Assembly (NCBI GenBank): GCA_040437565.1
Contig: JBDOQK010000034.1
Coordinates: 1-64,000 of the forward strand
Reading direction: 5' to 3'
DNA length: 64,000 nt
From: Albugo candida
Taxonomy: Eukaryota
This document shows positions 9,690 to 39,037 of the stretch, in pieces; positions within the stretch are counted from its first letter, which is position 1; the number at the start of each line of letters is the position of its first letter. A program made the translations under genes and the position numbers. Under the pieces are notes generated by a model, which worked only from the letters and a program-made list of their open reading frames with translations, was not told where the DNA came from and searched no databases.

Positions 9690-12014
9690 ACGTCGGCGCG
9701 ATTTCATCTTCCGTCTGTCCCGCTCAACCCTCTCCGCCTAACGCCATCCTTGGCTTTGCTATACATTTCGATGTATCGCCAGAATGTTCGAGCGTGCTTC
9801 CGAATTCACCTTCATGCTCACTCTATCGAGGATACAGGGAGCCTCTCCCAAAGCGAGGTGAAATTATAATTACATTGGTTCCGAGCTGCTCTCTTGGCGG
9901 CTCCCCAGTACCTCTCTATGAAGTTGCACTCACACTGTAGTTTGAGGTAATATTCAATAATGTGTCCTTCCTGCTTCACCTCCATCTCCAAGGCGTAATC
10001 CTGTTCAGAAAAATTTGGCTGAGCCATCAAGGCATGCGTTCAGCAGCATTCATTTGTTGGAGGCAATGCCTTGGAATGGCAATCCAGATTCCAATTTACG
10101 TTGAGAGGATTCCCGATCTCTCTTTCCTTCAGCACCTGTAAGAGATCAACGTCAGTGATGAGATCGCTTCAGTGAGATCTTGAAAGAACAGAGAAGAAAG
10201 CATACCATCTCGATGCCCTAAAAAAAATCTCTCCATTGTGAGTAAACCGCATGGATTGCCAGATTTTTGGTTATCGATGATGTACCACCCCTCTTGTATT
10301 GGTATGTTTTATCCTTCTTGGGCTTGAGAGTCATACTGCCAGCCACCAGAGCGTTGAGAGAAAACGCCTGATGACTGGAGGATTGGTTGAAAGAAAAAAA
10401 TCCTGTGAAATAAAAATTTAATCTTCAGTCCCAACTAGAAACGTGAAACAAGAAAGTTCAAAAACTCACCAGTACAATCCTAGATAAAGAATGTTGAAAA
10501 TAAGGATGGCCTTCTCATTGAGTTGCCTTGCCATGTTTTCACTTTTCCACCACCATCTCTGTTCTTGCCTGCCTTGATCATCTCTCTATATGATAGTGAA
10601 GTGAGCCCATTCTCCCTCGCTTGCTGATCAGTGACTTTCTGTGCCCATGGCATGGGCACAGAAAGTCACTGATCATGATTGACCCCCCTGGTCATTTCTT
10701 CCTAATCTAGCTATTGCCTTCTTCTACCCAGAACTCCTCTCTTCCATCGTTGATGTAGAAGGTAGAGTCATGATGCGTCCCATGCACATACTTGTTGTAC
10801 CACACTCCCACCTTGCCCTCCACCAACAAATTCATCTCCTCTCAAGTCCACTCATCCATCTTCTTTTCGTACTCAATCATACTCTTTGACTAACCCTCTC
10901 TATACTTCACCACATCCTCCCTTTCATGAGCGTCCATTTACAGCTCCTTTCCCATTTTCTTTTTTTTTTATACCCAGATCTTAAGATACTTGGCCCCTGT
11001 CAAGTAGCTGATCTTCTGCTCCTCATCTCTCAGGACCCTTGGCAAAATGCTGGTTTGAAGGACCATCTGGAGCCCTTTGGGCGATCTTTGATTGAGCTTC
11101 CTCCCCCTCATCCATGACAGGAACTCTCTCTTGATATCAAGCTCTGCCAGAGTCTCTCTCCTTTTTGAAATTCGGCCTTGCTGATGTGCTGGACGGGATT
11201 TGCTGACCAAGTACCGATCGGCCCAAAGCCCAGCGTTCCTGAAGGCCCAGTATGACGTCTTGAGCAGTTTGTCGTTGGCTGCAGTAGATGACGCTTCCTT
11301 CTTTCTCATGCCCTGGTTAAGCCGTCTTTCCAGGTACTGGAGGATGGCCATAAGTCTGAAAGCAAGATAATACGGAAGTTTTCCCCAGCTGCTTTTCTGG
11401 TTCTGTATGCATTTCAGTTCTTCCTTCAAACCGTCAATGGCCTCTTCCATCCTGTCTTCTTCTCCCTCTTCTCCCTGCTGCTCACTACTCTCATCTTCTG
11501 ATACAATGAACAACTCCTTTCTTTTAGTTTCTGATGGCTGCTGGCCTGCTGGTTTGAAGTAGATGTCCAGCATCTGCAGGTTATTCTCCTTGACATACTT
11601 CTCCCTCCTCGACTTGGTAGTTCTTGAGTTCTCTGCCAAGGTAAGTAAAGAGTTAGAGGGTGAAGAACGTTTTTGGCAAAAGAAGCCAGCTCAATTTTAT
11701 AGGTACAGGAGCTTTTTCTTCCCCTTCTTTTCCTTCTCGAGCTGAGCCTGGACAGCAGCAAATCTCCTTTGTAGCTGAGCTGTGTCTGTTTCCAGCCAGT
11801 CTTCTTCACCTTCACCTTCACCTTTCACTTCCCTCTCCCTTCCTCTTCCTTCTCTCCACACCAGTATGACATGAGGCTCTGATAGTCGAGATCCTCTGCT
11901 GCCTCCACCTCTTCCTGCTGTTGTTTCTGTGCCTGAAGTTGCCTCTTCTTGTTTTTGGCTTGGTGCAAGTTGGCTGGCTAATAGGGCCAGCCTTCTTTTT
12001 TTGGGAGGAGCCAT
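9690..12014 (-). mobile_element. Degenerate IS630/Tc1-mariner-like DDE transposase with two spliceosomal introns
   Basis: Motifs HERKEDVVKYR, HDSTFYINDG, ISDFLCPCHG, IKAGKNRDG, FNQSSSH, GIEMVLKER and CECNFIERYWGAAKRAARNQCNYNF. N-terminal NLS-like MAPPKKRR. GT-AG introns at 10403-10469 and 10136-10205. Confidence 0.8.
10625..10675. repeat. Perfect 25-bp inverted repeat with 1-nt spacer
   Basis: TGATCAGTGACTTTCTGTGCCCATG-G-CATGGGCACAGAAAGTCACTGATCA. Confidence 0.95.
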
Positions 12015-13102
12015 TATAGAAAAAATAAATGAGAAATCTTTTGAAATTTCTTTTTCAATGGTTTAATTCGACAATACCCGCAGAACCTTACCAACTTGAT
12101 TCAAATCTACATTCTTATTTATAAAAATTAACTTGAAATAATACTTGAAATAATTTGAAGTTCAAAAAATTCAAATTTAAATGAACATATTCGAAAAATA
12201 GCTTTGGTTGATTCACAAAACGTTTTGGATTTGTTAGGGGAGTCACACCATACTCTTATCATCGTCTGCGTGGGAGAAAGGGCCAGTTGTTACAAATCGG
12301 ATCAATTCCACTGGGTCATTTTCTCTCTAGCCGTTTGGATGATGGACGCACAGGAATACAGCTGGTTCGTAAAGCTGCCAGCAATTATCATCAGAATAAA
12401 CCGAAAGACAAGGGATCCCAAGCTGCCTGGTGTGCAGTTATAAAAGGATTCATAGTATCGAAGAAGTACGGCGTTTACGGATGACTTTGTCATCATTTGT
12501 CTCGGACACTTAAGGTAATGTCGAGAATCTTGGGAATATGTCACTGGTAGTTGACGTCTTTCAAGCAGCATTTTTCTCCCTTTTATGGATAACGTAAGCG
12601 TTCAGGATACAGCTAACATTATTTGCAGCTTGCTCTTATGTAAAACAATCACTGCTATGACTTGTAGTGGAAAACAATATGGACCATCTATGGTTCAAGC
12701 ACGCATATCGATAAAAAAAGGGGTTGGATCCTACTTAAGTGATTCCTGTGTGAGAAGACTAGTAGAGACTTTGGCAATCATGTCGCTGGTAACATCCTTT
12801 TGCCGAAAGTACGACAGTACACTTGATAAACGTTGCATCAGGTTTCGTTTGATACGACATTCATTACTCTCGACTAATTCAATGTAATCTATGTCAGAAT
12901 GAATCGATGTTAAATTGTAGGATTTCGAAGACGAGCTGATATGAGCTCTGCAGCTGATGAAGATATTTGCACAAAACCTAATCAGTATGCAACGTTAAGC
13001 TACGGAGAACCACAATTAAGGAATACTCAGAACCCAAAGCGTGCTGATAAGGACGAGTCTTTGTTCTTAGAGTATAAAGAATTGATGTCACCTACCAAAA
13101 TA

Positions 13103-13820
13103 TACTCTCTCTTCATCCGATGTTGTGGTGCATATCAACGCCATATTCTCCAGCAAACATTACTTCATCATGTTCACCAACTTGCGGTAAACTTAAGTAA
13201 GCTCCGAAGAAGCACGATAATGCCGATGCGCTACGCAATCATAATCCTTTTCGGTCTATACTTCGGACTGGTGTGTTACCTTTAAGGGTGCCCTGAGTGA
13301 GGCGGCCAGATCTTGTTGTCGTGGTATACTCGCTTATGCCTAACTTACAACACACTAGCTGGAAGGTATGGTTTTCATTCACTTGTTCGGCTCGCCTTTG
13401 CACCATTCCAAATACTGTATGATTTCCCAGCTGTCACGAACACCAAATGAGTATACTGTATGACTTAGAATACGTTGAGAATGGACGTATGGAATGACGT
13501 AAGGTATGAGATGACGTATAAAATGACGTATAAAATGACGTGTAAAATGACGTAAAGACATGACGTAAGGCATGACGTATAAAATGACGTATAAAATGAC
13601 GTGATATGATTCACAGGGAAACCGTATGATGTGGACGGATAGGGTAAGCATTTAACCTTGTGTAAAAGTGGCTGACACCACCTTCCAAACCTCATACTTC
13701 TCTTCATCCGATATCACCATGTTCATCAACTTGCCATGAGCTTGAGTAAGCTCCGATGAAGCACGATAATGCCGTCGTGCCGCGCGACAAGATTCTTTTC
13801 GCTCTACTCCTTAGAATGGC
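13103..13820 (+). repeat. Diverged direct repeat pair (about 13103-13270 and 13695-13820)
   Basis: Shared ctcttcatccgat, catgttca(c/t)caacttgc and agtaagctccga(a/t)gaagcacgataatgccg blocks. Confidence 0.8.
13461..13610 (+). repeat. 12-bp minisatellite (ATGACGTATAAA-like)
   Basis: TGACGT at 13495, 13512, 13524, 13536, 13548, 13561, 13573, 13585 and 13597, plus degenerate upstream units. Confidence 0.92.
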
Positions 13821-14061
13821 TCACCGCTTCGATGTATATATTTTCTAAAATAAGATCTACCTTTGATGCTATTGAGGCAATGTCATTCTAGCCAGTCCCA
13901 ACAGAACCTCAACAATTTATACTTATTTGAGGAGTAAAAGCTCTTTTCATTACGTTAGGGTATTAGTGTACAAAAAAGTAGGATCTTTCTGTAGTTGCTA
14001 TGAATGCATATCTTACGTTGCAGGTTGTCCACTATCTAATTTGCCATCAACAACAACACTC

Positions 14062-14553
14062 ATGGTCAATTCAAAGTTCCGCTTTGTCATTTTCGTACTG
14101 ACTGCACTTCATCTAAATGCGCTAAATGATATTGCCGCTCTTTACAATGGAGAAGATGTGCGACTCAAAACCGGAGATGCTTGTAGGGTATTACAGCTGA
14201 TTCCGTTCCGACGCCACAAATTCAGGAATGAGTGCGTAAAAGATGTCGCTTTTCGTAAATCTTCTTTTAGCGGATTTCCAACTAAAAAGTGTGAGAATCG
14301 ATTTATTGAATACAAATCGAAAATCAAAATAGATTTCAAAGTTGCAGAAAGTGAGAGCATATTTGCTTCCAAATCCAAAATGCACAATATGTTTGAAGTA
14401 CAGGGGTGGATTTTTGGATCGTGGGCTACGGCGGTTTTAAGTATAATGCGAGCAGCATATCCGGTAATCAATGCGTACAAGTCAAGTGAGGAAGATCGCG
14501 CTATTCTTTTTTTCATTCTGAGTGATGAGGCTAACGATTGCAAAAAAAAATAA
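14062..14553 (+). CDS. Orphan putative secreted protein (163 aa), candidate effector
   Basis: First true ATG of the ORF gives MVNSKFRFVIFVLTALHLNA, a signal-peptide-like sequence. Four Cys. An Inr/FPR-like CCACTATCTAATTTGC lies at 14029-14044. The ORF ends in an A-run, so it may be truncated. Confidence 0.55.
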   Translation: MVNSKFRFVIFVLTALHLNALNDIAALYNGEDVRLKTGDACRVLQLIPFRRHKFRNECVKDVAFRKSSFSGFPTKKCENRFIEYKSKIKIDFKVAESESIFASKSKMHNMFEVQGWIFGSWATAVLSIMRAAYPVINAYKSSEEDRAILFFILSDEANDCKKK

Positions 14554-14982
14554 GTCTTTTTATATTTACTCGAGTTTCATATCAATCTCGATTGCCAGTA
14601 CTAGAAATTAGGATTACTACGACTACGAAGGTGCACGAATAGAAATAAACTAGGAGGCATACTTATTTGATTTCACGCTTTTAAGAACTCATGCGTTGGC
14701 TAAGTGACCCACCCTCATGTTCGCTAGATATTGACAGAAGTTTTCTCTGCTTGGAACCGAAAGTGGATCTAGACTTTGGTAGCTTCATAATGAAGAATGT
14801 GCTCAGTGGCCGGACTAATATTTGGTTAAAGAGAGATGGATCTTGAATTAGTCTGCACCTTCAAAGTGTAATCCCCTACGGGGTAGTAGTCACTGGAGTC
14901 AACGGTACGTAGCATTGTTACATTCGTCTCATTGACTTTTCATAAGAAGCAATGATAGGCGATCTGTCAGACACCCACTTCC

Positions 14983-16860
14983 TTAGCAGTAAGCTTCGAG
15001 GTAGGCTGAACAAGCTTTGGAGACAATATTCCTACGGTGTGTTTCCATGTAAAGAGTGTGTTGATTGCCAAGTATACTGCTCCACTCGGCCAAAGACGAG
15101 TATGGATCGACAGCGAGCTCATCTGATTCCACCACGTCAATCGCTGTTTTGATCGCTTTTGCAACCGTTGATAAGCTAATCAGCATGGAAGACACGCACG
15201 CGGCTACCATGACGCTGTATGTTGTATCCGAATCTGGTATGAACTCAGTACACCCTCTCAAGGCATCTTTCAGCGTTAGCGCCAACCTCGTACGCCTAAG
15301 CTCCATTTCCTGTGGCTTGCAAGTGACTGTGTCGTGGGCTTGCTCGAGACGTAAAAATTCAAGCCAGAGACCGCCACCAAGATACCATTCACAGCAATTC
15401 CACAACGGTATTGACAAAGCAAAAAGTTCCATTTCTTCGAGTAATTGCAAAAGCAATTGCTTGTCATTGCTAAAAAACAGTCGGGCGGCGATGTGTTTGA
15501 TCAAAACAGAATGAGCTTCATCGTACATTTCGGCAGCCATCCAGTGGCCAATTTCAGAATGATATGCATTTTTGTATCGCATGTCAAGCGCCAACGTCGA
15601 CTCGATCCAATGCACAGGTATCTTCAGTTTCTGCACCAGTTCTTCCAACTGTTCCGCAGCCATTTGAGCTACATCGCACGAATGTCGAAGCAATACAGCT
15701 CGACAGGTGGCTTCACGTTCTACAGGATTTGAGATGTTCAATGTCACGTACAAAGCTTCCTGCCACAACTTATTTCCTTCGAGTTGCATGATGAAATTCT
15801 GATACAAATGGGATTCCCACACAGCGTCGAGTTGGTACCCGAGTGCACGTAAGATGCTGTTCAGATGCCAACTCACTTCATAATCAAGGTATGCGGACGT
15901 GCCGTGCAAAAGTCCACTTGGTGATAGTACATTACACAACGCGACAGGTTGTTCGGCATACAATTTCAATACTTCCATCAGCATATCATCTTTGATCGAG
16001 CCACACGTCGAGACGGAACATGAAGCTGCCAAATTCTTTGCACAGGCTGTTTGATACATTGACAAAGCGCTTTTCAGTGAAGTGGAAGGTCCGTATTTAT
16101 ACCAAAAGAATAACGCGATAGCGGAGAGCCATGACAGTCTCCATTGAGATGAAGCAGTGACAGCTTCGACGGCTCCAGCGAGAACGCTATAAATGAGTGC
16201 GTGGGTCTCACTGAAATGCGATAAAGACTCATCAACTCCCCATTCTGAGAGTTGCGTCATGATCAAATGTCGGAATTCGGAGCCGTCATACGTTGCAATT
16301 TGTGCGACAAGTGTGGCGAGTCTCAAGTTTCCACTATCTGCTGCGAGCTCAGCAGCTTCCGTAATCTGATGTCTGCATAAAAGCTGTAAGATGGATTCTT
16401 CCGACGTGTCTTTCCTGTGACACGACTCATCCTCCAGCAAACCGATCGCATTTTCCATCCATCTCGAGATTGCTACACGACGCAAATCGACTGAGGGCAT
16501 CCTATCGAGAGTTTCCACGTCACATGCATCATCACGTACTGCAAGCGCCCCTGGTCCATCCTCCGCCAACACATTTCTCTCTTGACCCCACAACGCCTGC
16601 ACGAGTTTCCATAATACTTCGATATGACGCTCCACTTTACGACTCTGAAAAGCGTGCGAGTCGCTGTGATGATCCATGAATTTGCAGTACTGCTGTAGCG
16701 CGTGCGTGACGCCAATTCTTGAAGCAATTTGGAACTGCGGGCTTGGAGATGACGCAGCGAAAGTAGCACACTTGTAATGAAGCTCAAGTGTATCTCGCAA
16801 CCTGTCACGTCTCGCGGTATTGTTTGATTCGAATTGCAAAGGGAGTGCGATCGACACCAT
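14983..16860 (-). CDS. NUP96: Nucleoporin Nup96 domain, uninterrupted 625-aa ORF
   Basis: Nup96-like LWKLVQALWG, RRVAISRWM, AAELAADSGNLRLATLVAQ, IYSVLAG, LSWLSAIALFFWY, SWHL and QLEGNKLWQEALYV. It lies directly downstream of Nup98 autoprotease remnants. Confidence 0.9.
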   Translation of the reverse strand: MVSIALPLQFESNNTARRDRLRDTLELHYKCATFAASSPSPQFQIASRIGVTHALQQYCKFMDHHSDSHAFQSRKVERHIEVLWKLVQALWGQERNVLAEDGPGALAVRDDACDVETLDRMPSVDLRRVAISRWMENAIGLLEDESCHRKDTSEESILQLLCRHQITEAAELAADSGNLRLATLVAQIATYDGSEFRHLIMTQLSEWGVDESLSHFSETHALIYSVLAGAVEAVTASSQWRLSWLSAIALFFWYKYGPSTSLKSALSMYQTACAKNLAASCSVSTCGSIKDDMLMEVLKLYAEQPVALCNVLSPSGLLHGTSAYLDYEVSWHLNSILRALGYQLDAVWESHLYQNFIMQLEGNKLWQEALYVTLNISNPVEREATCRAVLLRHSCDVAQMAAEQLEELVQKLKIPVHWIESTLALDMRYKNAYHSEIGHWMAAEMYDEAHSVLIKHIAARLFFSNDKQLLLQLLEEMELFALSIPLWNCCEWYLGGGLWLEFLRLEQAHDTVTCKPQEMELRRTRLALTLKDALRGCTEFIPDSDTTYSVMVAACVSSMLISLSTVAKAIKTAIDVVESDELAVDPYSSLAEWSSILGNQHTLYMETHRRNIVSKACSAYLEAYC

Positions 16861-19800
16861 TGCATACGACGAATTGGATTAAAATGTGTCGGCAAATGCG
16901 ATCAGTTTGCCACACTATGCCAATTCACCTTGCGTTCCCTACGAACAGCGGAATGAAGGAGCCACAAAGAGTCCAACATCGTTTTGGCAAAGAAATTTCC
17001 AGCGATCATCCCACTCGCGCTTTTTGACTCCGCATTGCTCGCTTGTAGTAAGGCATATGTGGGTGATAGCTTTTCTGGTGCAAGTTTTCTGGTTTCAGAA
17101 TCGAATCCCCAAGGTTTGTACTCGTAGAGCGCTCCTATGCTTTCGCCTTTGTAGGAGATAAACTCGACCATTTCAACAGTGTCGGTATCGTCATCCTCGG
17201 GCGCAAGATGACTGTAGAATTCTTTCGAGGGATTCCACTTTCAAGAATGCTTTGGGATCAGTACTCTCAAAGGAGTCAATTTGCATGGGCTCACGGACAG
17301 ACATGTCCATCACAAGGTTCTTTATCGTTGTCTGATGCTGTTCAATGTGCGTTGGATGCTTCTCGGTATAAAACAGACGCCTTATCAGTGGAATGGCAAG
17401 CTTGAGTCGCTTTTTTGAAGAGCCGAAGGGAGAAGCCAACGAATGATCCATTGCAATTTCCAAAGTCTTCTCACTACAGTTCGGTGAATCGTCTGTTCTC
17501 TGATCTCTCCCTTCGTCCATTTCCGTCTCTTTTTCGTTGTCTTTGATCCCAAACGACTGAAATGCTTCACACTGAATCGCCATATTCCGAGTGCTACGGA
17601 ATAGACGATAAAGTCTGCATCGATATCTCTTGTCCGTTGTATCACGCGTTCTTCGTATCGTTTCACCAGTCGGGTCGTCCAAATGTGGTGGAAATATCTC
17701 CAAAAGCTCCACAATCGCAGGCTCAATCAGACCCTCCCCGACCGAATGCTTCTTTCCATCGTCTTTGTACACCATAACCTCTTTCTTCTCAAATGTATCA
17801 AGTTCATCGAGGTTCAGGTTCCGAATGTCTGTGAGCCCAATCCATTCCACCGATCTAAGTTCATGACAGCTCACAGTGAATGATCTGACTTGTGTCAGTT
17901 CTTGATGGCTCACTTGACAGATGCGGTCGTAAGGAGGAACAGTGTAATAGCCTGATTTTTTTTGAAGCGAAAACGCCAGGCATTTCTTCGGTTCTTTGGG
18001 GTAAGCATCGTTGATGTCACACATCGTCTATGACAAGAACTCGTCATTTGTCACAAATTGGTTCAGTTACCGAGGTTTAGTTGATAAAAATGCCATCTCC
18101 TTCCCCGATATACTATTCGATTTGTTGTCGTCGGCAACAACGATGTCGATAACGTCACCATTTTGTCGTTGCAGTGATTTACTGATAATTTCCGAAGTGT
18201 CCTCGGTGTCGAGTACTTCTCTATGACAGACGTATAAAATTTGTCGAGCTGATTGCGCTCCGATGTGCTTTGTGATAGGTTTCTTTGTATCATCCAATTT
18301 CTCATAAAGGGAGACATCAAGCGAGAATGGAAAATTCTCTGCGCCATACTAAAACGTAATTCGTATTCGGCCATCTGTCTCTTCTGTGACAGCGTCCGTG
18401 ACGATCGCCGGAACCTTTTCGACAATTCTATTCGCATGCCTCACGGAATTGTTATTGTTAATGATGAATTTCTTCCATGATCCTCGTAACAGTGAGCCAA
18501 GCGGAAGAGAATCAACAGTATTTCTCAGATGACTCGTTCTCGCTGATGTCGATGCTAAAGCTGTGGTTGGATGGAGTATCTTGGTCTTGGTAGTTTTGAA
18601 TAGCGTTCCAAGAAAGTAAGAGGTACAAAGCGGACGTCGAGAGGCGCTTTTATAGTGGGGACGCGATGCTGATGATGGTGTACTGATACTTCCACGTTTC
18701 AGGCCCACATGTTCAGCAAAGGAATGCCCTCGAGACAGTGTCGAAAAGCTATTCGATCCTACTTTTATCGCTTGATCGTCGAGTGCAGCTTTGACGATTT
18801 GATCCAGTAAGCCGTCTCCATATGACCCAGAGCCATATGGATTGATGTCAGGAGCAGCAATCAGTCCAGCTGGTTGGGCGTTGGAAGCCATATTGTTCTG
18901 AACAGAAATATTCCCAAATGTGTTACTGCCAAAGCCACTGAAGGCGGACGAAGCGGTGTTTCCAGGTACAGTTGATCCAGAACCAAAACCCAGAGTACTC
19001 GTACTTGCTCCAAAAGCCGATCCGGTGCCTCGACCAAAACCATTGGTGCCAAATTCCGAGCCAAACGATCCATTAGGTGTACCTGCGCCAACAAAAGTGC
19101 CAGAATTACCTAATATCTTAGTCGGATTCGTTTTCGTATTCGTTTACCTGAACAGAACTCCAGACTTTGGAGCATTAAAAAAGTTGTTTGTATTGTTTTC
19201 CGTCGCATTTGATTGACCGACAAACCCTCCAAAGCCTGTATTCGCCGCACCAAACATTGACGACCAGCTTGTAAGAGATGGTTTCGAGCCGAAAGTAGAT
19301 GGTTGGGTAGCACTATAAGCGCCAAATGTGTTTGTAGTTGAAGGTTTAGCAGCATTATTGGCTTCAAAGCTGAACGCTGTATTTCCTGTCGTCTTGCCAA
19401 AAAGAGAATTTGAAGGGGCATTAGTGGCTGTATCCGTTGCTCCAAATGCATTTCGAGAGCCTCCAAAAAAGAATCCAGTATTGTTACTGGCTGCAGGTGT
19501 CGTTGTACTTGTACCAAACCCACCAGCAAATGCGGGTTCTCCAAATGGTGAGCCGGTAGCACCAAATCCAGCGCTTGTAGAGGTATGAAAGCCTCGACTC
19601 ACACCGGATCCAAAAACTCCACTCGTCAAGCCCGTACCTGTCGGCTGAGTCGCCTGATTTCCGATCGTATTGCCAAACGCAGAATTTGTTGTTCCTGTGG
19701 AAACGAACGCCCCTGTGATCTGAAACCACCCGATGTAGCACCAAATGGCTGATCCGAAGTGGTGTTCGTACCAAATGCATTTCCAGCTGTAGCAACGCTC

Positions 19801-20017
19801 CAGTTGACGCCGCTGGTTGCGCATGGAACGAAGACGATCTAAAATTGCCAGAGCCTGACGTTGCTGGAGCTCCAAAAGAACTTGAAGGCGTTGTAGTAGA
19901 CCCAAATCCGGTTGACATACCTCCGAACGCGCTGGTCTTGGTATTTCCAAATAAGCTGTTACCGGTCGATTGCCCGGCGCCAAATTCTCCGGCATTGGGT
20001 GCTTGTGTTTCAAACGT
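16861..20017 (-). pseudogene. NUP98: Disrupted Nup98 portion (FG/GLFG-like repeats, DINPYG region, autoproteolytic domain, Nup96 N-terminal linker)
   Basis: FG-rich fragments switch frames repeatedly. The APD parts GYYTVPP...NLDELDTFEKKEVMVY...GEGL and WRFSVKHFSR are in different frames. In-frame stops at 16941-16939, 16917-16915 and 16881-16879. The probable start reads ACG-TTT (20017). Confidence 0.8.
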
Positions 20018-20526
20018 GTTGAAAGGCTCAGTGAGCGGGCAGCTCAAGCGGCGAGAAATTGTGCACTTTGACGAACTGTGAGATTTTACTTGGAATTGGG
20101 ATTCAATTTTCCGATACTTGTGCACTTTTTATAATGTAGACTATACATACAGAAATGTATCGAACACGTAGTTGCGCTTCAAATACGTATAAGGGTACGT
20201 ATACATGCCAATTTATTGACTCACATCACTCTGATTTGATGTCACGGTGGATTTTGATTGATGGAACATGGCGATGACGGGATGAGTCTTCACGAACTTT
20301 CATTTCACGAACAATGCCTGTTAGTGATATAAAGAATTTGCGAGCATTGGAAATGTGATTAAAGTCGCACATGCAGAGGCCAATTCGTATAGCACTGTCA
20401 GCTCATAGTTAAAACATAGATTCGTATCCTGCAAAAATAAATCTAATTTTCGTATTGATCTAACTCTAGCGTGACGTCTGAAGGATGGCTCTTCTCGACG
20501 CTTGCTCTTATTCATCACATGCGATG

Positions 20527-20900
20527 CTATAAGCAGCACTTTCCGACTATTGCTTCTACTATTTGTTTAAGGCGCAGATTGGCTGTTAAGAGAATCGAAC
20601 GGACAAAAAAAGTCGCATCGAGTACACTCCAGATTCTACAAGCAATTTCTTGCACATGAGTGCATTTTTTGGTTTGCTTTGAGACTAATTTGTTGTGACT
20701 GATAGCTGAAGAACTGTGATAGTTCGGAAAAAGAAGGTGTTGAAGTGGTGCTATTTCTTGAGAATTTATACGAGCGTCTCGTCTTACAAAGCGCAGAACA
20801 CAATTCGGAGCGTGCGACATCCATTTATGGCATATTGGCGATCTGTGAGGATCTTCCAGCACTTTTCTACAAAAAGCACATACTTGCATTTGAAAAATGT
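20527..20900 (-). pseudogene. Possible RING-finger relic
   Basis: Fragments CAFCRKVLEDP/PICHKW and ANLRLKQIVEAI resemble a RING domain and its following helix. No coherent gene model. Confidence 0.2.
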
Positions 20901-21969
20901 CGCACGTTCATTCGCAGCATTATGTGTGGGCCATAAATGTGACTCCATCTGTTTCCAACAATTAAGATGCATACTGTAGGGAAGGTTATGGTGGAAATAC
21001 GCATCAGCTAAAAATCATAAGCTTGGATTATAGGCAAGCCATTGCTGGTGATATGGATCTTGTTAGCCTCGAAAGCAGCAGTTCTCCACTGCTGACACTA
21101 GAATGGATGAAGAATGTGGCGAAAATGGAACAACTTGAACTGATGCGGAACAAAGCAATTGTCTATTACATAGTAACATCCGTCGGTGCCCAACATGTTC
21201 TCTCCATTATCAACGATGCGCACTGAAGTTGTAATTCACCTTATGGTAATATTGACATGAGTTATGGTAAGACGAAAATCGATCGATATGACGCAACTTG
21301 TTTTGATCGCGGACGTCTATAGTCAGAAATGCATTGGTTGAAATGAACTCAGAGTTATCGCACACAATGGGTAAAAGTGGCTGAGAGTAGACAGATGTGC
21401 GTAGCGCTACCAGGAACCTGACAACGGCTTGAGTCTGCTTCCAATATTATAGCAATTTAGGCTTTAGCAAGCATGACGTTCTAAGAGATAAGTAAGATAA
21501 TAGAAACAAAGAACCCCATTTAAAACCGTAAACTGAAATGGATATGCGGAGGCAAAGTACCATTTTCAAATAATAAAGGGAGTTTCTGGTATTCACTCCC
21601 CTCTTGATAGTATTCACTCAACCCCAAATAATTGGCTAAGATTCATCGCTCATTACTAATACATTCGCTAAAATTCATCACCTGTGACGCGCGGTGACTC
21701 ACTTTCACCTACCACTCGGCACAAATACACAATGAAATTGAAGTCATCTTATTAACCATATCGCTCAGCACATACATCATTATGTATGCTTGAATATGTA
21801 TATAATTAAAAGTGGCTTTTATTTAGGACATAGAAGTTTACACAACTGTCGAGAAATGATAAAAAAAAANNNNNNNNNNNNNNNNNNNNNNNNNNNNNNN
21901 NNNNNNNNNNNNNNNNNNNNNNNNNNNNNNNNNNNNNNNNNNNNNNNNNNNNNNNNNNNNNNNNNNNNN

Positions 21970-22700
21970 TGGTGCGATGGTGAATATATCCATCGGCTTG
22001 TGTGGTCCAAAGGAAGGTTGGAGTAAGTTGTAATAATTCCGTCGAAGCAGTTGTCCAATTCGCAGGAATAATTGTTGACGCATCGGATGCGAACTGCTGA
22101 AGGAATTGAATACGTTTCAGCTTAAATCGTCCCACCATAAAAGGAACTTGTAGTCCACCATCTTGTCGGCGAAGATATAAAAACTCTTTGCTGATATCTA
22201 ATCATGGTCCTTGAGAGCTGAAGAGGAAGCTGGTCGCATAGATCAAGTTGCGAAGCACCCCACATTTTGGCACAACTTATCTATAAGACCTATTGTTACT
22301 CCTCAGTCGTCCAACTTATTCTAAAAGCAAAAATTGCGCTAATTTCGGATGTCAAAGCTTTTCCGAGACATGACATCATGTCCCGCATACGTGAAAAAGA
22401 AACAAACGTTAGTGTCATCGCACGCATCAACACCAATGATATCATCAGCACTCAGATCACGTGTATTCATTCGATATTCTCGTCGATGTTTTGCTTATGA
22501 TATTTCTACAGCCGTTGTATTCGCGAATGATGTGGTGTGCTCGCTTCTTCCAACCGGCACATCCTAAGTGACTGTGAAGGCCGTCCAGTCGCTGTTTTGC
22601 TTTCTTACGGCTCACATATCAAAAGCACGTAAACTTATGATCGCGAAGGGGCTTCAAGATCAACCATTCAGTTTGGTCCTGCTTCGAACGCAAACAACTA
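21970..22700 (-). mobile_element. LINE (L1/Tx1-like) RT C-terminal relic
   Basis: ISKEFLYLRRQDGGLQVP matches the L-x-L-P-R-x-x-G-G-L motif after the LINE RT thumb. Upstream EHTTSFANT may be a decayed (Y/F)ADD. Heavily degraded. Confidence 0.5.
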
Positions 22701-25700
22701 AAGAACAGTAGCCAGGAGCATAGTCGCCAAGACCAAGACATGAGGGTGCTCTGTAGATGATAGAGCTATAAAGAAAAAGCGCGCAATACGGCTGCTTTTA
22801 TACTGCAGGGCGCCATTTTTTAATGCTTTCCCGACGAATGCCTGACGAATTCTGTCAACAGCTAGGCTGTGACTTGACTTTTTCTTTATTTCATGACAAT
22901 CGTTTCAATTCTCAGCATTTATGGTATCCCTTTGGCTAGAATGAGGGGAAGAGTTCAACGAAAGCATTTAAATTAGAGGAGAAAACGTTTTATTGGATAC
23001 CAATGCATGTAACAGTTCCAAAAGATATCAACTTGAACGCTATAGAAGAAAATCGAGTTATGATATCAGACGCCGGATGTCGGGGATGCTTTTGCTGTTC
23101 TCGGTACTTCGTGCTACTTGGGAGATGACTAGAAAATCAACGCTACCCAGAAAAAATTCTATGCAAATAAATGTTCTATCATAAAACTATTCGACATTCA
23201 AGATGTGTAGCAAGCACTTCTTTTAGTCAGCTGCGTGCTGCGCCGCTATGACGTCATCAGCTGCCTTAGCCTACGTATCTTCCTATTGGCCGAAACATGA
23301 CGACGATGGCAACAGTACGATTAAGACATTTGAGCTGGGTTTTCTGTAAGTCATATATTGTTTCGATTTATTTTGACATTGATTTCATACAACCACTCGT
23401 CTCGCCCAATATGAGAGAATTTCGAAGTCGATTTGATTCTAGCCTTTTGTGGGTTTCATGGTTGTGGAGGAAGCACGATGTGCGCGCCCTTTTGCGGATC
23501 GCAGGGACTTGACAATGATTTTTCCCACTATCCAGAGATATCTACAACGAAGTATTAAAATTGGACGAATGTGGCATGGTGTGCATTTTTTGTATTGCTT
23601 ATAAGTGATCAAAAAAAAAATACGCGAGCAGAAAGAGGGTCTGACCTGTGAAAAGACACTGATAGAGGCTGACATCGCTCAAGAATTGGAGGACATACCT
23701 GTCACGCAAAATACTCCGTCACTGAAGACAATCCTCATTCGAAATCTGGCAAAACAGTCTAACTCGCGGAGACTAAGACACTGGAAGTAGGAAGGTGTAG
23801 TGATAGGAGGATCTTCAAGGGTATGAAAGGCACGGTAAAATTCCTTGATGTGCAAAACAAGCAAAATCAAGAAATTTGGTGTAAAAATAGTCCTTTTTTC
23901 TCTCATAGAAGAAAATTGGAACTACTGACCAAGGCGTTTGTAGCTTTCAAGGACCAGAGGCGAAACGTTTAACTCTAGCATTTTCGTTTGGACTCGAGAT
24001 CCTCGAAGAATAATCGAAGATTGGTTTACACCCCACCGAAGGATATGTTTTTGTAAAGGTTGTTTTTAAGCATGTGAAATATATGGTGGAGGTAAGTAGT
24101 TCAAAGCATCCTGTGACCTTCGGTGCGCTGAAAAAATCAAACCCGCGTCTCAACCTTTACAGAGAGTTCAACGATTATTTGTGTAAAATTAGACTATGTG
24201 TGCTGAATATGTCCATAATTGCTGATTGCTGGTTTTTGCCAAATTTGACAAAGTGTACTGCAATTTCGTGTAAGAATGGTTACTAGCATAATTATACTAA
24301 CCTGTCGATACGTGCTCTTTTTATTCACTCTACTTGTGGCGTCTACTATCTAAGCCGCCATGAAAACATGTGTGTTACTTTCCCACTGCTACATCCTTAA
24401 AGCCTCTTCATGCTTGCTTATCCTTCACAATTGTGAACAATGAATTTTTATGCTTGCAAACTTTGCTACGTAATGCTGATTGACGGTGCAGCTAATATAC
24501 CATGCTTTCCATCAATGCTGCACGCCCTGCCTCAGTACGAGCTGATACTAGCCCGAAGCCTTTCTGTTTTTTTCTCAAGTCGATAAATATTTTCTAGCTA
24601 GCTTTCGCTCACGCTGTTATAGTATTCCGTTGTCTGGTTTGCATTTAGTGGTTTTCTTGCAACGAGTCGCAATTCTGGAGTGCTATAATCTTGTTCAACT
24701 CGTGGTGCATCTTCAGGATATGAATGGGACTCATTGTGTTACTGGAAAAGAGAAAGAGAAAAGAAGAAGGTTATAGGCAAGCGTCATTTTCGTATTCGTT
24801 GTAATTATGGTGCTTTTTTAGACAATTCCTCTGCTTTGAATGTATTGAGCTGTTACTATCCGCTGTACACTGCAGTTCGGGCTTGCCTCGATTTGTCGCC
24901 AGCCAGACTTGTCATGACAATTTCGACGGATACACACAGTAAGTGTTCCGGCACAAAGGCGCACTATTTACAAGACGCAATCTCGTGAAAACAAACGATA
25001 TTATAGACCACACATAAGTAAATTTTTCGGAACACCTGTGAAACCGGCGCTAAAGATTTAGAATTTGTCGCAGTTACCAATCTCAAGAAGATTAGCAGTA
25101 AGTTGGCTTTATCACTCGCTGCCTTGCTACTCCATTCTTCATCTCTTTCATGCGCGCGCATGGATACGACGAAAGCATGGAAGGTCTAACCTTTTTGGTT
25201 CTCGGGGTCTGACTGCAGCGCCGACATCGCATAATAACTCAGACTACTTTCCTGGGATGACGTTTCGTTTCAAGCATAAGCCGAGAAAATTCGGGAAGCC
25301 TCCTCACAGAATTCTCGCTCTCTTCTACTGGAGTTTTCACATTACAATAGATCGGTCTTGTATCTAGGTGTCTAATAGTCTGCATATACAAAAACGAGCT
25401 TCTATAGCCCAGACTTCGCCTCAATCGGGACGAGAAGAAAAACAGGATTTGTTTGTGAGCTATCCAGGAGTTCCTTGTGGAAAACGAGAATACCATAATA
25501 ACGAGTAGCGATTGGGAGCGCACTCTCCGCGTCGCTGTTTAACTCGTTGTGTCGGAGAAAATTATGAGACGGACAACCATTCGGTTATTAAGACAGCGTT
25601 CGATGTGAAACTAATGTATGTGCCACCTTTATACACACCACCATGCTGCACATCTGCCCTTTGTTTAAAGATGCCGCAAATGTTTATGAAAGCATCAAAC

Positions 25701-26173
25701 CTGGAGCATTCTTATCGAGGCCAAGATCATTACCGAGAGCATGATTATGAATAAAATCTAGAAGCGGACTTGATAATGATGATTCAAAGCAGCTTTTCAT
25801 CCGAAAAGTGATCGGCGAAGCATAGCATATCATTATGGCCGAAAATTATTTGATTGCGACGTTCCTCACTTAAGTAGTAGCATTGGCTCGATTCCTCCGT
25901 GCATACGAGGCGCGTGATCGTTGAGTTCACTCGAAATTAAGAAAGGCTCAGAACGGAAGCGCCTAAGCAACTCTCTCAGTTGGAAATTAGTATCAACTGT
26001 TCCCTGAAACAGGGAATTTCTCCATGCCGTGACTTGTCGATCGAAAGTGCGGTTAGTTATTTACTTCTTCACTTGCTAATAAGCTCACCCATGCGATCCT
26101 AGTTTAGGTGTTACATTATGGAACGTGACCTTGTCTGAGGTTACCAACGCGAAATTCGCTCATGGAATAGCGC

Positions 26174-27229
26174 ATGGACGACAGTGTAGCACCCCAAATT
26201 GTCGAAAAGTGTAGCATACACGCTCATACACGCAATATTTCAAGCGTAAAGTTTGCACCGAAAAATCCAATCCTGCTCGCAAGCTCATGTAAGTCAGTAT
26301 CATTTCTATAATCACCTCGCGAATGAATGGAAAATGTCTTTATAGCTGCTGATGCGAGCGTAAAATTGTGGAATTTGACCCGCCCAGAAAATGCGGAAAG
26401 AGTTTTTGAGGGACATACACAAGGGATTTCTGACCTTGCTTGGTCGCCATCGGGCGGATGTATAGCCTCGGCATCCGATGATCATTCAGTACTACTTTGG
26501 GATTCGGAAACGGGGGCTAATCTTGGAATGTTGGGCCAAAGAAAAGGTCGAAAATATGGTTATCAGTACACTCACGAAAGCATAGAGGTGGCTGGGCATA
26601 CGAATTTTGTCTACTCTGTGGCTTTCAACCCACAAGAATCGCTACTTGCAAGTGCATCATTCGATGAAACAGTTCGCTTATGGGATTTGAGAAGTCACTC
26701 GTGTGTAGCGGTTATCGATGCTCATCAAGAAGCCATCACATGCGTGGCATTCTCTCATGACGGAACTCTGTTATCTACATCGAGTTATGATGGGGTAGCA
26801 CGAGTTTGGGATATCTCTTCTCAACAGTGTCTTCGCACGCTTATTCTCGAGCGCCCTCCGGCTCCTCCTCGGACAGCTGTATCATACGTGAACTTCTCAC
26901 CAAATAGTCGATACCTTTTGTGCTCCATGCTCAACCAGCGCATGTGTCTATGGGATTTTATGCGAGGTTCTGATACAATTGCAAAAGAGTATTCAGGTCA
27001 CTTAAACAAGAACTTTTGTATTTCGTCAGCCTGGTTCCGAAGCCGGGATAAACTTCTCATCGTGTCAGGTTCTGAGGATAACACTGTGGTTCTGTGGGAC
27101 GCAATTGGACAGCAAGTGGTTCGAGTACTGCACGGACATGAAGAAGCAGTGATTTCAGTGAGTACAAGTGATGATTGCATTGCCTCCGCAGCTGGAGGAT
27201 GCATCAAGATCTGGAGGAAACAAACATGA
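26174..27229 (+). CDS. WD40-repeat protein, WDR5/Swd3-like; join(26174..26288,26346..27229)
   Basis: Exon 1 HAHTRNISSVKFAP...LASS joins over a 57-bp GT-AG intron to SADASVKLW. Also GHTQGISDLAWS, GHTNFVYSVAFNPQ, SASFDETVRLWD, KEYSGHLNKNFCI and IVSGSEDN, typical of the WDR5 family. Confidence 0.88.
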
Positions 27230-27762
27230 CAAAATCATCATTTTGACAAGCGCGGTCATGAATATGATTGGTCATTACTCTGCTAATAGCGTTGGTGATT
27301 GGTTTGAATGGCAGACGTGAGCTTCAGTCCATAATAGTGCTATATTTTAATAAGGAGGTATATTTGCTTTGCCTAATATCTGCACTACACATGCACTATT
27401 GATAGGTTCTGTTGCAGTACTCTTGTGCATTCTGTGCAGTCACATTTGTAATCCACTTTTTGACCAATCATGCGGTTGGCCTTTTGACATGAAGGAAATT
27501 AAAGGCTTGAGAACTTTTATGCTGAAATTTATGTCCAGAACGAGTTCGACTATTACAGCTTCACCTGATCTCCATAGAAACTTAAGCTACTTTCTAAATC
27601 TCGAGAACAGATTTTTCGTGACTAAAGAGTGATTGTATCTCTACGTGTGCCTTAATGGCTGTNNNNNNNNNNNNNNNNNNNNNNNNNNNNNNNNNNNNNN
27701 NNNNNNNNNNNNNNNNNNNNNNNNNNNNNNNNNNNNNNNNNNNNNNNNNNNNNNNNNNNNNN

Positions 27763-29047
27763 ACCCGCCCAGAAAATGCGGAAAGAGTTTTTGAGGGACA
27801 TACACAAGGGATTTCTGACCTTGCTTGGTCGCCATCGGGCGGATGTATAGCCTCGGCATCCGATGATCATTCAGTACTACTTTGGGATTCGGAAACGGGG
27901 GCTAATCTTGGAATGTTGGGCCAAAGAAAAGGTCGAAAATATGGTTATCAGTACACTCACGAAAGCATAGAGGTGGCTGGGCATACGAATTTTGTCTACT
28001 CTGTGGCTTTCAACCCACAAGAATCGCTACTTGCAAGTGCATCATTCGATGAAACAGTTCGCTTATGGGATTTGAGAAGTCACTCGTGTGTAGCGGTTAT
28101 CGATGCTCATCAAGAAGCCATCACATGCGTGGCATTCTCTCATGACGGAACTCTGTTATCTACATCGAGTTATGATGGGGTAGCACGAGTTTGGGATATC
28201 TCTTCTCAACAGTGTCTTCGCACGCTTATTCTCGAGCGCCCTCCGGCTCCTCCTCGGACAGCTGTATCATACGTGAACTTCTCACCAAATAGTCGATACC
28301 TTTTGTGCTCCATGCTCAACCAGCGCATGTGTCTATGGGATTTTATGCGAGGTTCTGATACAATTGCAAAAGAGTATTCAGGTCACTTAAACAAGAACTT
28401 TTGTATTTCGTCAGCCTGGTTCCGAAGCCGGGATAAACTTCTCATCGTGTCAGGTTCTGAGGATAACACTGTGGTTCTGTGGGACGCAATTGGACAGCAA
28501 GTGGTTCGAGTACTGCACGGACATGAAGAAGCAGTGATTTCAGTGAGTACAAGTGATGATTGCATTGCCTCCGCAGCTGGAGGATGCATCAAGATCTGGA
28601 GGAAACAAACATGACAAAATCATCATTTTGACAAGCGCGGTCATGAATATGATTGGTCATTACTCTGCTAATAGCGTTGGTGATTGGTTTGAATGGCAGA
28701 CGTGAGCTTCAGTCCATAATAGTGCTATATTTTAATAAGGAGGTATATTTGCTTTGCCTAATATCTGCACTACACATGCACTATTGATAGGTTCTGTTGC
28801 AGTACTCTTGTGCATTCTGTGCAGTCACATTTGTAATCCACTTTTTGACCAATCATGCGGTTGGCCTTTTGACATGAAGGAAATTAAAGGCTTGAGAACT
28901 TTTATGCTGAAATTTATGTCCAGAACGAGTTCGACTATTACAGCTTCACCTGATCTCCATAGAAACTTAAGCTACTTTCTAAATCTCGAGAACAGATTTT
29001 TCGTGACTAAAGAGTGATTGTATCTCTACGTGTGCCTTAATGGCTGT
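27763..29047 (+). repeat. Copy of 26378-27662 across an N gap (partial second WD40 gene; likely assembly overlap)
   Basis: No differences noticed at offset 1385. The copy starts exactly at the gap edge. Confidence 0.85.
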
Positions 29048-32620: not shown

Positions 32621-35600
32621 CTGCGAGTACGCCACAGACAAGTCAAACTGCAAGTGCAACTCTGATCCTAGTCCTTGTTGGATGGCTAATATATCGACAC
32701 CTTCAACTGAAGGTCTGATTGTTACCCTTCATATTGCATCGATGCAAAGGAGAAGCATATATATGTCCATTCTATCTTGTAGACATCGGACAGGAATTGT
32801 GGAACTACATCAACCTTCGCTGTCATATGTATATGTTGATGCATTTCACAGATGACAAACACTTGCTCAATTAAAATGTTAAGTGATGAGCTAAAATTGA
32901 TTCGTTTATCACATCATTTGATAGATATATCCTTGCGCACTCGATATCGTCCGAACATGCCGTGACAAGATTTGATGGTTTGGTGATATTTTGAAAGTAC
33001 TGCTGAATTCTTCGGGAAATGTGCTGTCGGATGCTTAAGTTTTCATAGTGATGAAAAGAATGTACCTACTTCACGAGGTCTGAGTGCGGTAATAGAAATG
33101 ATAGCGTGGTTTTGCTATTCGAATGGAATGCAGGGGTATCTGGATACTTATAGCGGTTCCGAGTACAAAATAGATAAGGAAATTCAGGGTTTAATTTAGG
33201 GTATCTGGATAACGTCTCTTGGCTTTTTTAGTATGTGGATTCATCTCGGTCCTTAACCTTATTAGATTTTCACATTTGTAAAAAAATCTTTTCATGTTTC
33301 TACGTTCTTACCTTAGCACTAGTTAGCAAAAATCCCAAGTTTTAGCTCATGCTCATTCTTATCCTTTTCGAAACCTAAAGACAAGATAAGTTCGAGGAAC
33401 CAAATCACTCGCAGACAACTCGCAGATAATGGATGTCTGATTAGGGACAACCAGGTACAACGTATCATTATATTCTACTCCTTTGCAGTACACAAAAGTG
33501 TTGACCTATTAAGCAATTTCCATTGCATGCACCGAGAACGACCTCCATACTGGTCACAACTTGCTGCAACTAACTCCTTAGTTCACAATACTTTCGTGGA
33601 AGTCATGGATAATTGTTCAATAGACCACATGGGCATGTTCTCGATCTTCCCCTCAACGTAACTTCTCATGTTTGTTCATTCACTTAAACAGCGCGGTTAG
33701 TAACTATTCCAAGAAGGAGCTGGTCCAAAAAATAACGCTATTTACTATCTTTATCTTATTGTCAAGAGCTCTTCAATGTGTGTCTATTATTTTCTTGCCA
33801 AAGTGGAATTCCGCAAAGTCAATTTTGCCCTGGCGCATNNNNNNNNNNNNNNNNNNNNNNNNNNNNNNNNNNNNNNNNNNNNNNNNNNNNNNNNNNNNNN
33901 NNNNNNNNNNNNNNNNNNNNNNNNNNNNNNNNNNNNNNTTAGTTCACAATACTTTCGTGGAAGTCATGGATAATTGTTCAATAGACCACATGGGCATGTT
34001 CTCGATCTTCCCCTCAACGTAACTTCTCATGTTTGTTCATTCACTTAAACAGCGCGGTTAGTAACTATTCCAAGAAGGAGCTGGTCCAAAAAATAACGCT
34101 ATTTACTATCTTTATCTTATTGTCAAGAGCTCTTCAATGTGTGTCTATTATTTTCTTGCCAAAGTGGAATTCCGCAAAGTCAATTTTGCCCTGGCGCATA
34201 TGCATCGTGCCCTTTACCATTCAGCAATAAACATCATTCGAATGTATTCTGGACAAATACCTCCAAGTCTCACTTGCCATACATCAATTCCTACACCACT
34301 CGTAATAGCAAATTTTTACAACCGTGCTTCCTGTCTCTTACTTAATCCATCTCGTCCGTAGTACATCATAAGCAGTGAGCGTTCATAGATGATTTTGTAT
34401 TGCGTCCGGATTACTACTGTTTCGTATTTCATCATTTCATGCAAACGGATATCATACATATAATATCATGTCGTTTGAAAGCCTTGGTTAATTGCTAGGC
34501 TAGGCTGGCAATTGACTAATGGAAAATAGAGCACGCCTTCGACAAGAAAAAAAACCATTTTCTCTTCATCCTTCACTGTAAGAAAAATAATATTAAATTC
34601 TTCTTCTTTGGCTTCAAGATTATCAGCGAATCCTTCATCCTAGTAAGCTGTGATGTGTGTACTCGATCCCGATTAAAAGTATCATCGCAAGGGCTCTATC
34701 TTATATTGATAGTTTATGAATCACCACTCCGCGCTCATCCGTTCTTTTCATTCCATGTATCACTGTCGCTTGTGTTCACCCAAATGAGCTTGATTTGGTT
34801 ATGTCTTCTTCCCCAACCAAGCTCGAGAAAGTAGAGTTTAAAGTGATCTCCACCGCAACGCAATCATATCAGCCCCCATTTTCAATCTTGGCAGCTGGCT
34901 TCCTTTTAGCATGATTGTATGGTTTCTTGCCACGATGAGAGCCTCCTTGCATACAGTGACTCATTTCGTGTGCGCTTGTTCCCCTGCGGGATTTTCACAA
35001 TCTTCATGTTAGTACAAATAAAGCCTTATGTCGTAATATGTCATAACAGATCAGTGTTAGAAGACTTTGCAACATGTGGTCCATCACCTGCAAGCCATTC
35101 ATGGGCGATGTAAATCTGCAAGTTGATTTTTGATATGGAGAATCTTGCAAAAATGGGTGCCCTTCCCGCGCGGTGGCTCCTGTACAGCTCACCTTGCAAG
35201 CGATTCGCCTTTTTTGCAGTCAAATAGGTTTCGTCTTATCTTCGTAGATTGATTCCACATCTCCGTGACAGTACATGTTATTGTACATTGCTTCGAAAGC
35301 TTCATCGAGAGCGATTCTTCATTTAGTTTTTTGCTCCTTGCTTGTTACCTATTGCATTCGCTCTTCATTATTCATTACTCCAGCTTACCTCCAGACATTC
35401 CTTTTTGATAGCTATCTGATCCGATAGACTTTTCTGAAGCAAATTCATCATTTCATGCTTGAAACAGTCCAGTCGTCTCCGTTTCAGCGTATGGGAGTCC
35501 CTGCAGATCCAACTCCAAATTCTCCTGCTTCTTCCCCGTAGTCTGAATATGACGATATGTTTGATGTAGTGTGTCGAATCGGTCGCGAAGAACCGGATAT

Positions 35601-38800: not shown

Positions 38801-39037
38801 GCTGCAGAATTAATAATGAGCAAGATGACGCTATGTATCAGCATTTTGTGTCTGTGAACGCATAACCTCGTATAGCTTTTAACGCATTATGAGAAGATTA
38901 TATGAATGTATTGCATTCATCACTCCAAAAAAAAAAANNNNNNNNNNNNNNNNNNNNNNNNNNNNNNNNNNNNNNNNNNNNNNNNNNNNNNNNNNNNNNN
39001 NNNNNNNNNNNNNNNNNNNNNNNNNNNNNNNNNNNNN

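Follow-up and report, generated by a model that had tools for sequence, protein, structure and literature searches.

A 5′-truncated, decayed copy of the Nup98-Nup96 gene in Albugo candida with a probable gene-conversion tract

Is the gene of the Nup98-Nup96 polyprotein splitting in two in Albugo candida, or does a dead copy of it only look as if it were? The question is raised by a 64,000-nt stretch of A. candida DNA (GenBank assembly GCA_040437565.1, contig JBDOQK010000034.1, positions 1 to 64,000; hereafter the window, always at its full length), whose minus strand between positions 20128 and 14983 carries Nup98-Nup96-like sequence: a frame of 631 codons, preceded by pieces in three frames (all taken from stop to stop). 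The original prediction, made from the letters alone, was a gene undergoing fission, with a dead Nup98 half and an intact, stand-alone Nup96. We consider, with a probability of roughly 0.7, that this copy, here named W, is a decayed pseudogene that lost its front and contains a gene-conversion tract, no fission of the polyprotein being involved. W is a paralogue of an intact gene of the species, carries disabling lesions and relaxed constraint in its 5′ part, and shows a step in its nucleotide divergence from the intact copy; the open frame is probably non-functional. A literature search found nothing on Nup98-Nup96 copies in Albugo.

Identity of the copy and its lesions

The predicted homology was confirmed by Pfam matches on the minus strand. 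Precisely, the open frame at 14983-16878 matches the Nup96 domain PF12110 with E 1.4e-57, over positions 1-294 of the 295 in the profile; the S59 autopeptidase PF04096 falls into two frames, with 70.8 bits in the one (profile positions 2-118) and 23.9 bits in the other (112-146). The extent of W was obtained by tblastn and by frame-aware alignment to two full-length proteins. The first is the intact A. candida Nup98-Nup96, CCI43318.1 (P0044 in our numbering; 2004 aa, named "Peptidase S59 domain-containing protein", encoded on a 118-kb contig), which is colinear with the A. laibachii, Phytophthora and Pythium proteins. The second is F0WIM4 of A. laibachii (P0001, 2030 aa, 75% identity), the closest full-length protein in the first search. 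CCI43318.1 was found in the 90%-identity cluster of KAL0585307.1 (P0040, 497 aa, locus ABG067_004839, Albugo candida), a model to part of which the frame at 14983-16878 is 100% identical. W keeps the order of the intact gene, namely FG repeats, linker, S59 autopeptidase with its His-Phe-Ser site, and Nup96, and comprises the following features:

14983..20025, minus strand: whole paralogous copy W, 5′-truncated, equivalent to residues ~299-2004 of CCI43318.1
18880..20025, minus strand: what is left of the second FG-repeat block (frame shifted at 19795 and at 19721; stop TAA at 19146-19144; 21-nt deletion near 19069)
17956..18879, minus strand: linker between FG repeats and autopeptidase (stops TAG at 18351-18349, TAA at 18069-18067 and TAG at 18030-18028)
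17550..17955, minus strand: S59 autopeptidase remnant (frame shifted at 17667 by the loss of 2 nt and at 17552 by the loss of 1 nt)
16879..17549, minus strand: what is left of the Nup96 N-terminal domain, with the initial part of the presumed Sec13-binding motif (frame shifted at 17241 by the loss of 14 nt and at 16994 by the loss of 1 nt; stops TAG 16941, TAG 16917 and TAA 16881)
14983..16878, minus strand: open frame of 631 codons from stop to stop, encoding the Nup96 alpha-helical C-terminal domain
15250..16865, minus strand: tract near-identical to the intact paralogue (right edge at 16865/16866, left edge approximate)

We called lesions by a frame-aware dynamic-programme alignment of CCI43318.1 with the window DNA. 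Six frameshifts and seven in-frame stops were found, and all 13 lie in the 3147 nt from 20025 to 16879, in line with the many frameshifts originally read in the FG-repeat and autoprotease region. The residues of CCI43318.1 at the last three stops are Trp (16941), Tyr (16917) and Glu (16881); as had been argued, homopolymer errors are unable to explain the stops, which are substitutions. The 1893 nt from 16878 to 14986 hold no lesion at all, so the claim of 625 clean codons after ATG 16860 (down to the stop at 14985-14983) also stands. At the rate of the 5′ part about 7.8 lesions would be expected here, and the probability of finding none is ~4e-4, or 7e-4 if 12 lesions are counted. W also has two in-frame deletions, one of 7 codons (21 nt) near 19069 and one of 3 codons (9 nt) at 15094-15099. 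No continuous frame leads from the FG/GLEBS region to the end of Nup96, and the S59 domain is not intact, with the codons of the His-Phe-Ser cleavage site (17564-17556) out of frame with the domain start; only the PF12110 domain is whole. In the open frame 605 of the 626 aligned residues match CCI43318.1.

The front of the gene is absent. Believable homology begins at ~20025, that is at residue ~299-303 of CCI43318.1, and the window further upstream is unrelated; residues 1-298 have no counterpart in the whole window besides low-complexity FG cross-matches. The ~298 absent codons include 22 FG dipeptides and the block NYISISRM...EELRYEDYLK, which we take to be the GLEBS motif. The triplets ACG TTT GAA at 20017 had been read as a lost start codon. 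In fact they are not a lost start and align with an internal N-T-F-G of the intact protein (about residues 303-306); the true N-terminus is missing from W.

We counted the amino-acid changes unique to W or to CCI43318.1, with A. laibachii as the outgroup:

FG block: 45 unique to W, 6 unique to CCI43318.1
Linker: 40 unique to W, 6 unique to CCI43318.1
Autopeptidase: 21 unique to W, 2 unique to CCI43318.1
Nup96 N-terminal part: 14 unique to W, 3 unique to CCI43318.1
All four 5′ segments (1049 sites): 120 unique to W, 17 unique to CCI43318.1
Open frame (626 sites): 3 unique to W, 12 unique to CCI43318.1

The two ratios, 120:17 and 3:12, differ with a Fisher p = 8e-8, and ~72 changes unique to W would be expected in the open frame at the 5′ rate. 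We also considered the residues that are invariant among 16 full-length oomycete proteins (15 chosen from 39 matches, plus CCI43318.1; 402 invariant columns). W lost 14 of 63 in the FG block, 8 of 52 in the linker, 8 of 69 in the autopeptidase and 4 of 20 in the Nup96 N-terminal part, hence 34/204 across the 5′ part, against 0/129 in the open frame. It retains 24 of 39 FG dipeptides, while A. laibachii has 38 of the same 39. Between 16994 and 16860, counted by eye, about 9-10 nucleotide differences give 10 amino-acid differences. Constraint is relaxed in the 5′ part only. In that part W and CCI43318.1 have 215 derived states in common relative to A. laibachii, and the duplication is therefore younger than the split between A. 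candida and A. laibachii. A copy with a dead Nup98 half that follows a duplication, as originally proposed, is what the lesions and the intact CCI43318.1 bear out.

To verify the lesions we used independent sequencing data. Parts of the stretch are contained in 20 runs from 14 studies; we compared the contigs of four runs, each from a different study (X1, X3, X18 and X20), aligned on positions 13800-21200 at a likeness of at least 88%, and the per-site differences reported below are those among the matches listed. None of the runs listed is recorded as RNA; that X18 and X20 are RNA is a guess, and nothing on expression was drawn from the X18 depths. Several contigs reproduce the window state over the lesions: X1 record 5 (17447-17710, 0 differences) covers the frameshifts at 17552 and 17667, X1 record 6 (18137-18429, 0 differences) the stop at 18351, and X3 record 29 (19001-19583, 1 difference) the stop at 19146 and the 21-nt deletion. 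The 5′ breakpoint is covered by X1 record 7 (19857-20209, 2 differences) and by X3 record 30, and the 3′ flank of W is matched by X1 record 3 and X3 record 24 with 0 differences each. Where intact states were seen, the depths (intact depth/total depth) were:

16994, +C: X1 86.4/235.9, X3 61.2/199.4, X18 151.5/151.5, X20 0/3.8
17551, +T: X1 113/306.5, X3 110.1/333.3, X18 175.9/175.9, X20 0/4.44
17666, +CG: X1 113/306.5, X3 0/199.9, X18 175.9/175.9
19793, +A: X1 91.1/301.5, X3 134.9/383.7, X18 105.8/105.8
17237, +14 nt, and 19069, +21 nt: X18 only
16940, TGG for TAG (T>C relative to the window): X1 86.4/235.9, X3 61.2/199.4, all depth of X18 and X20
16915, TAT for TAG (C>A): X1 86.4/363.9, X3 61.2/346.9, all depth of X18 and X20

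The window state is thus the majority of X1 and X3 depth at 16994, 17551, 19793, 16915 and 16940, and intact states occur at indel lesion sites of X1, X3 and X18, those of X20 being confined to the two stop sites. Most lesions of W are genuine, since they recur in contigs of independent runs, and are not assembly errors. The exception is the stop at 16881 (A>C in the run contigs), where all 10 contigs of the four runs (4, 3, 2 and 1) have C on the plus strand, giving GAA (Glu); this stop is either private to the assembly or an error. Hence two of the three stops noted just upstream of ATG 16860, at 16941 and 16917, recur as window states, while the third is found in no run. The letter at 16881 is one of several of this kind: every covering run contig differs from the window also at 13977, 15649, 15667 and 18536, and nearly all run depth does so at 17960 and 18048. 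The window letters at these seven positions are isolate-private variants or consensus errors.

The same contigs show that the intact gene and W stand apart. The contig over the 5′ junction of W has a depth of 126.8 in X1, against 133 for the flank; an X18 contig of the intact copy diverges from the window beyond 20025, and the minus strand of its loose end, inspected by eye, encodes the residues of CCI43318.1 that precede the breakpoint. W is apparently a separate locus, present in both haplotypes, and we rejected the allelic explanation, the junction contig being at full flank depth and the intact copy leaving the window at 20025. PMC4384639 puts the difference between A. candida races at only about 1%. 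A second locus with intact Nup98, which the original prediction had suggested looking for, was found as CCI43318.1 in the protein collection and as intact states in the run contigs.

The family has further members. CCI11506.1 (P0042, 441 aa), whose model bypasses the His-Phe-Ser region, a 173-aa protein grouped with an unnamed one (P0054/P0046), and probably an 89-aa protein (P0051) are gene models threaded around the lesions of other decayed copies, so that A. candida has at least five Nup98-Nup96-derived copies: the intact gene, W and at least three others. Depth in gene bins is 129-943 in X1 and 111-632 in X3, with flanks at 132-133 and 98.5; being several-fold above the flanks, it indicates a multi-copy family, with the caveat that summed contig depth is not copy number and that the excess is simply consistent with several annotated copies. 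The 199 X1 contigs divide by identity into 84 at 99% or above, 46 at 95-99%, 54 at 90-95% and 15 below 90%. A 1-nt deletion at 15725, present in one contig of every one of the four runs, marks one further copy of the Nup96 part, and contigs ~90% identical to this part are X1 record 4 and X3 record 25 (places 16321-16597 / 15308-15681); hence there are more decayed family members than the annotated proteins show.

The clean frame and its edges

Nucleotide differences explain why the lesions might end where they do. X18 record 12, over 15500-16865, has 5 differences from the window in 1366 nt (0.4%), while the X18 contigs in 16881-17087 have 17 listed substitutions and 1 insertion in 207 nt (18/207 vs 5/1366, Fisher p = 1.3e-12). 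Directly upstream (to the right) of 16866 the divergence is ~9%, and it remains high in X3 record 27 (16873-17199, 31 differences and a gap in 327 nt) and in X18 record 13 (18766-19647, 75 differences and 21 gap letters in 882 nt). At 16866 the X3 contig path branches into three contigs; on the other side of this point, X3 record 26 (16568-16865, 1 difference) has a depth of 186.9, against 98.5 for the flank (~1.9x), and in X1 a single contig, at depth 250.5, covers 16619. W and the intact gene thus appear to be identical within the tract and collapsed there into one contig. At the left end, 8 differences are clustered at 15164-15247, beside the 9-nt indel at 15094-15096, and we therefore placed the end of the tract near 15250.

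Under selection alone, and with ~9% neutral divergence, we estimate that ~30 synonymous differences would be expected in a tract of 455 codons. Because the near-identity includes the nucleotides and has a sharp edge, we consider gene conversion, rather than selection, the probable cause of the step.

The sequence of events that we propose is the following. W would be a non-functional, 5′-truncated, DNA-level duplicate of the A. candida Nup98-Nup96 polyprotein gene, which arose in the A. candida lineage after A. laibachii had split off. Deprived of its promoter, its start codon and ~298 codons at the front, it would have drifted without constraint and gathered its 6 frameshifting deletions, its 7 stops and its losses of FG motifs and invariant residues. 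Recent gene conversion with the intact paralogue, by overwriting or by exchange, would then have renewed the final ~1.6 kb of the coding sequence (about 15250-16865). The refreshed tract would have had too little time to decay, and the three stops followed by 625 clean codons would mark the tract edge, the stops being the first old lesions beyond it. In agreement with this, we found the three things looked for in a pseudogene with a conversion tract: a paralogue with independently seen lesions, unconstrained substitution outside the tract, and an abruptly bounded tract.

A retrocopy was considered and rejected, because the 3′ edge is devoid of a poly(A)/poly(T) tract and homology to other copies continues past 14897, where it includes a 12-nt indel (seen by eye). 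In 12000-24000 no flanking repeats or mobile element were found besides a 12-nt tandem array and two weak pairs, and 20100-26300 has short ORFs only.

Several points weigh against this reading. Purifying selection would equally account for an open frame with no lesion and no invariant residue lost, and a converted frame may at the same time be functional. The contigs are both short and unphased, so that no single record spans the W-type 5′ part, the shared tract and the W-type 3′ end, and minor variants inside the tract are possible beyond the differences listed. Over the ~270 nt at its end (14983-15250) W departs from the intact copy, by the 9-nt in-frame deletion and the 8 clustered substitutions, and is nevertheless open; this is a weak point, as only ~1.1 lesions would be expected there. 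X20 has mixed states at very low depth (3.8). Finally, protein searches gave no intact full-length protein from the annotation set of KAL0585307.1, and the intact copy in the window's own genome rests on run contigs, which differ from the window at several private sites.

Alternative explanations

An alternative that we consider unlikely is an assembly chimera, in which W would be decayed throughout and sequence of the intact gene would have been threaded through a shared repeat into its 3′ part. The window belongs to a draft scaffold with eight 100-N gaps, at least four of which are flanked by exact unmerged overlaps; the family is multi-copy, the contigs of all runs break at 16865/16873, and other copies are damaged in the Nup96 part (the 15725 deletion and the ~90%-identical X1 record 4 and X3 record 25 described above). 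The locus, however, lies inside the gap-free piece 1-21869, and W-specific sequence is matched on both its sides (X1 records 3 and 7; X3 records 24 and 30). In an independent short contig (P0047) the 3′ end with the 9-nt deletion continues upstream into ~620 nt of clean coding sequence. The 5′ and 3′ parts of W type co-vary across runs, both being present in X1, X3 and X20; X18 has no state other than the intact one at the six indel sites listed, and its W-type 3′-flank contig (14593-15009) has a depth of 22.4, with the gene at 234-294. Moreover, the shared unitig of ~2x depth abuts the W-type branch, which argues that the identity is real at least over 16568-16865.

We regard as improbable the fission itself, or a subfunctionalisation at its beginning, in which a truncated Nup96 would be made from ATG 16860 under purifying selection, by a promoter within former coding sequence. 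The absence of lesions in 1893 nt against 13 in 3147 nt (P about 4e-4), the 0/129 invariant residues lost and the mere 3 amino-acid changes unique to W would all fit it; in addition, an annotation pipeline predicted the gene KAL0585307.1 here, and the W-type C-terminus with its 3-codon deletion is open in P0047 too. Against it stands, in the first place, the fused gene: CCI43318.1 is in A. candida and intact states are in the runs compared, so that the genome does not lack a fused supplier of Nup96. Because the intact fused gene persists in the species, nothing has been split. The 5/1366 nucleotide differences and the sharp edge at 16866 are likewise unlike the work of selection. As for the annotation, the 497-aa model begins further downstream than ATG 16860 and terminates in another frame, hence it does not support the 625-codon ORF.

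The putative product, moreover, would be an incomplete Nup96. CCI43318.1 aligns with solved Nup96 chains from residue ~1334-1337 (7vci_F from 239, 9sob_M from 23 and 5a9q_5 from 253); ATG 16860 corresponds to residue 1376, hence it lies ~40 residues inside ordered Nup96 and downstream of the conserved block SFRCSWGP...ELAYCGKL, in which the three stops are found. According to PMC5653651, yeast Nup145C begins with an N-terminal domain without structure (1-148), recruits Sec13 through a domain invasion motif (149-183) and is helical in the remainder (184-711); the same paper reports that in Chaetomium the N-terminal domain recruits the Nup82 complex. By alignment, the SFRCSWGP...ELAYCGKL block probably represents most of the Sec13-binding domain invasion motif in Albugo. 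A product from ATG 16860 would then be devoid of the Nup96 N-terminal domain and, judging from the alignment and from PMC5653651 and PMC9233733, of most of the Sec13-binding motif.

As for the putative promoter, the motif TTCATTCC at 16950-16957, previously taken as Inr-like, is the coding sequence of the conserved S-F-R; it occurs 6 times in the window versus 3.8 expected, and 21 of 100 shuffles reach at least 6, so that its frequency is that of chance. A stand-alone Nup96 born from an independent fission was therefore not upheld: the fused gene persists, the tail is near-identical to the intact paralogue, and the ORF is incomplete.

Another reading, very doubtful in our opinion, is that transcription from a cryptic start runs through the 625-codon frame, refreshed by conversion, and yields a Nup96 helical fragment unable to bind Sec13; in a wider sense, A. 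candida would then be multiplying pieces of an essential nucleoporin gene, to at least five copies, by a targeted or mobile-element-linked process. If this were true, the fragment would be a first step towards a separate Nup96, or a regulatory or dominant-negative fragment of the pore.

A single-copy gene that is in truth intact, its lesions being introns or errors of sequencing or consensus, is hardly credible: the stop at 16881 is in no contig of the four runs and the window has other private letters, but the W states at frameshifts and stops recur across independent runs, the lesions lie within colinear conserved coding sequence and so are unremovable by splicing, and neither the missing N-terminal 298 codons nor the 120 amino-acid changes unique to W would be accounted for.

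Other features of the window and meaning of the copy

Elsewhere in the window, the eight 100-N gaps are at 21870-21969, 27663-27762, 33839-33938, 38938-39037, 44194-44293, 60366-60465, 61972-62071 and 63838-63937. Exact unmerged overlaps at the gaps include 26378-27662 = 27763-29047 (1285 nt) and 36617-38937 = 39038-41358 (2321 nt), and these perfect tandem duplications are therefore scaffolding artefacts. A gene for a WDR5-like WD40 propeller is present twice on the plus strand, at 26327-27229 and 27622-28614, with 283/283 residues identical; it is probably a single gene duplicated by the unmerged overlap across the gap 27663-27762. A plus-strand frame of 536 codons (46628-48238) has a MULE transposase domain (PF10551, E 3e-18) and would be a Mutator-like element or a domesticated relative of one. 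At 13481-13615 there is a tandem array with a 12-nt period, made of ATGACGTA-like units with a TGACGT core in at least 7 registers; it stands upstream of an unannotated plus-strand frame of 225 codons (13876-14553), for which no Pfam match was found.

Three known systems can be compared with W. With the intact Nup98-Nup96 and yeast Nup145 precursors (CCI43318.1, F0WIM4, and the Phytophthora and Pythium proteins of ~2000-2100 aa) it shares the domain order. Unlike them, it has neither a start codon nor the first FG block, its frame is broken 13 times, its autopeptidase lies in two frames, and 34/204 invariant residues and 15/39 FG motifs are lost. Its likeness to the separately encoded Nup96 of seed plants (e.g. 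Arabidopsis) is that the W frame encodes only Nup96-type sequence; in this case, however, A. candida retains the fused gene, the W ORF covers the helical C-terminal domain only, and gene conversion best accounts for the cleanness of the frame. A general and well-known class is that of duplicated, unprocessed pseudogenes in which gene conversion exchanges sequence with a functional paralogue. W resembles them as a lesion-rich paralogue with unconstrained substitution and a sharp-edged tract near-identical to the functional copy, and differs from the typical case in that its parent gene, of which four decayed copies or more exist, codes for an essential nucleoporin; this is unusual, not new in kind.

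For the annotation of A. candida, the consequence is that KAL0585307.1 is probably a model built on a pseudogene. For scans of reading frames in general, W is a caution that where a run of lesions gives way to a long clean frame, gene conversion between paralogues can be responsible instead of selection. Should the frame be expressed after all, it would offer a rare view of a Nup98-Nup96 polyprotein being dismantled, as it was in seed plants.

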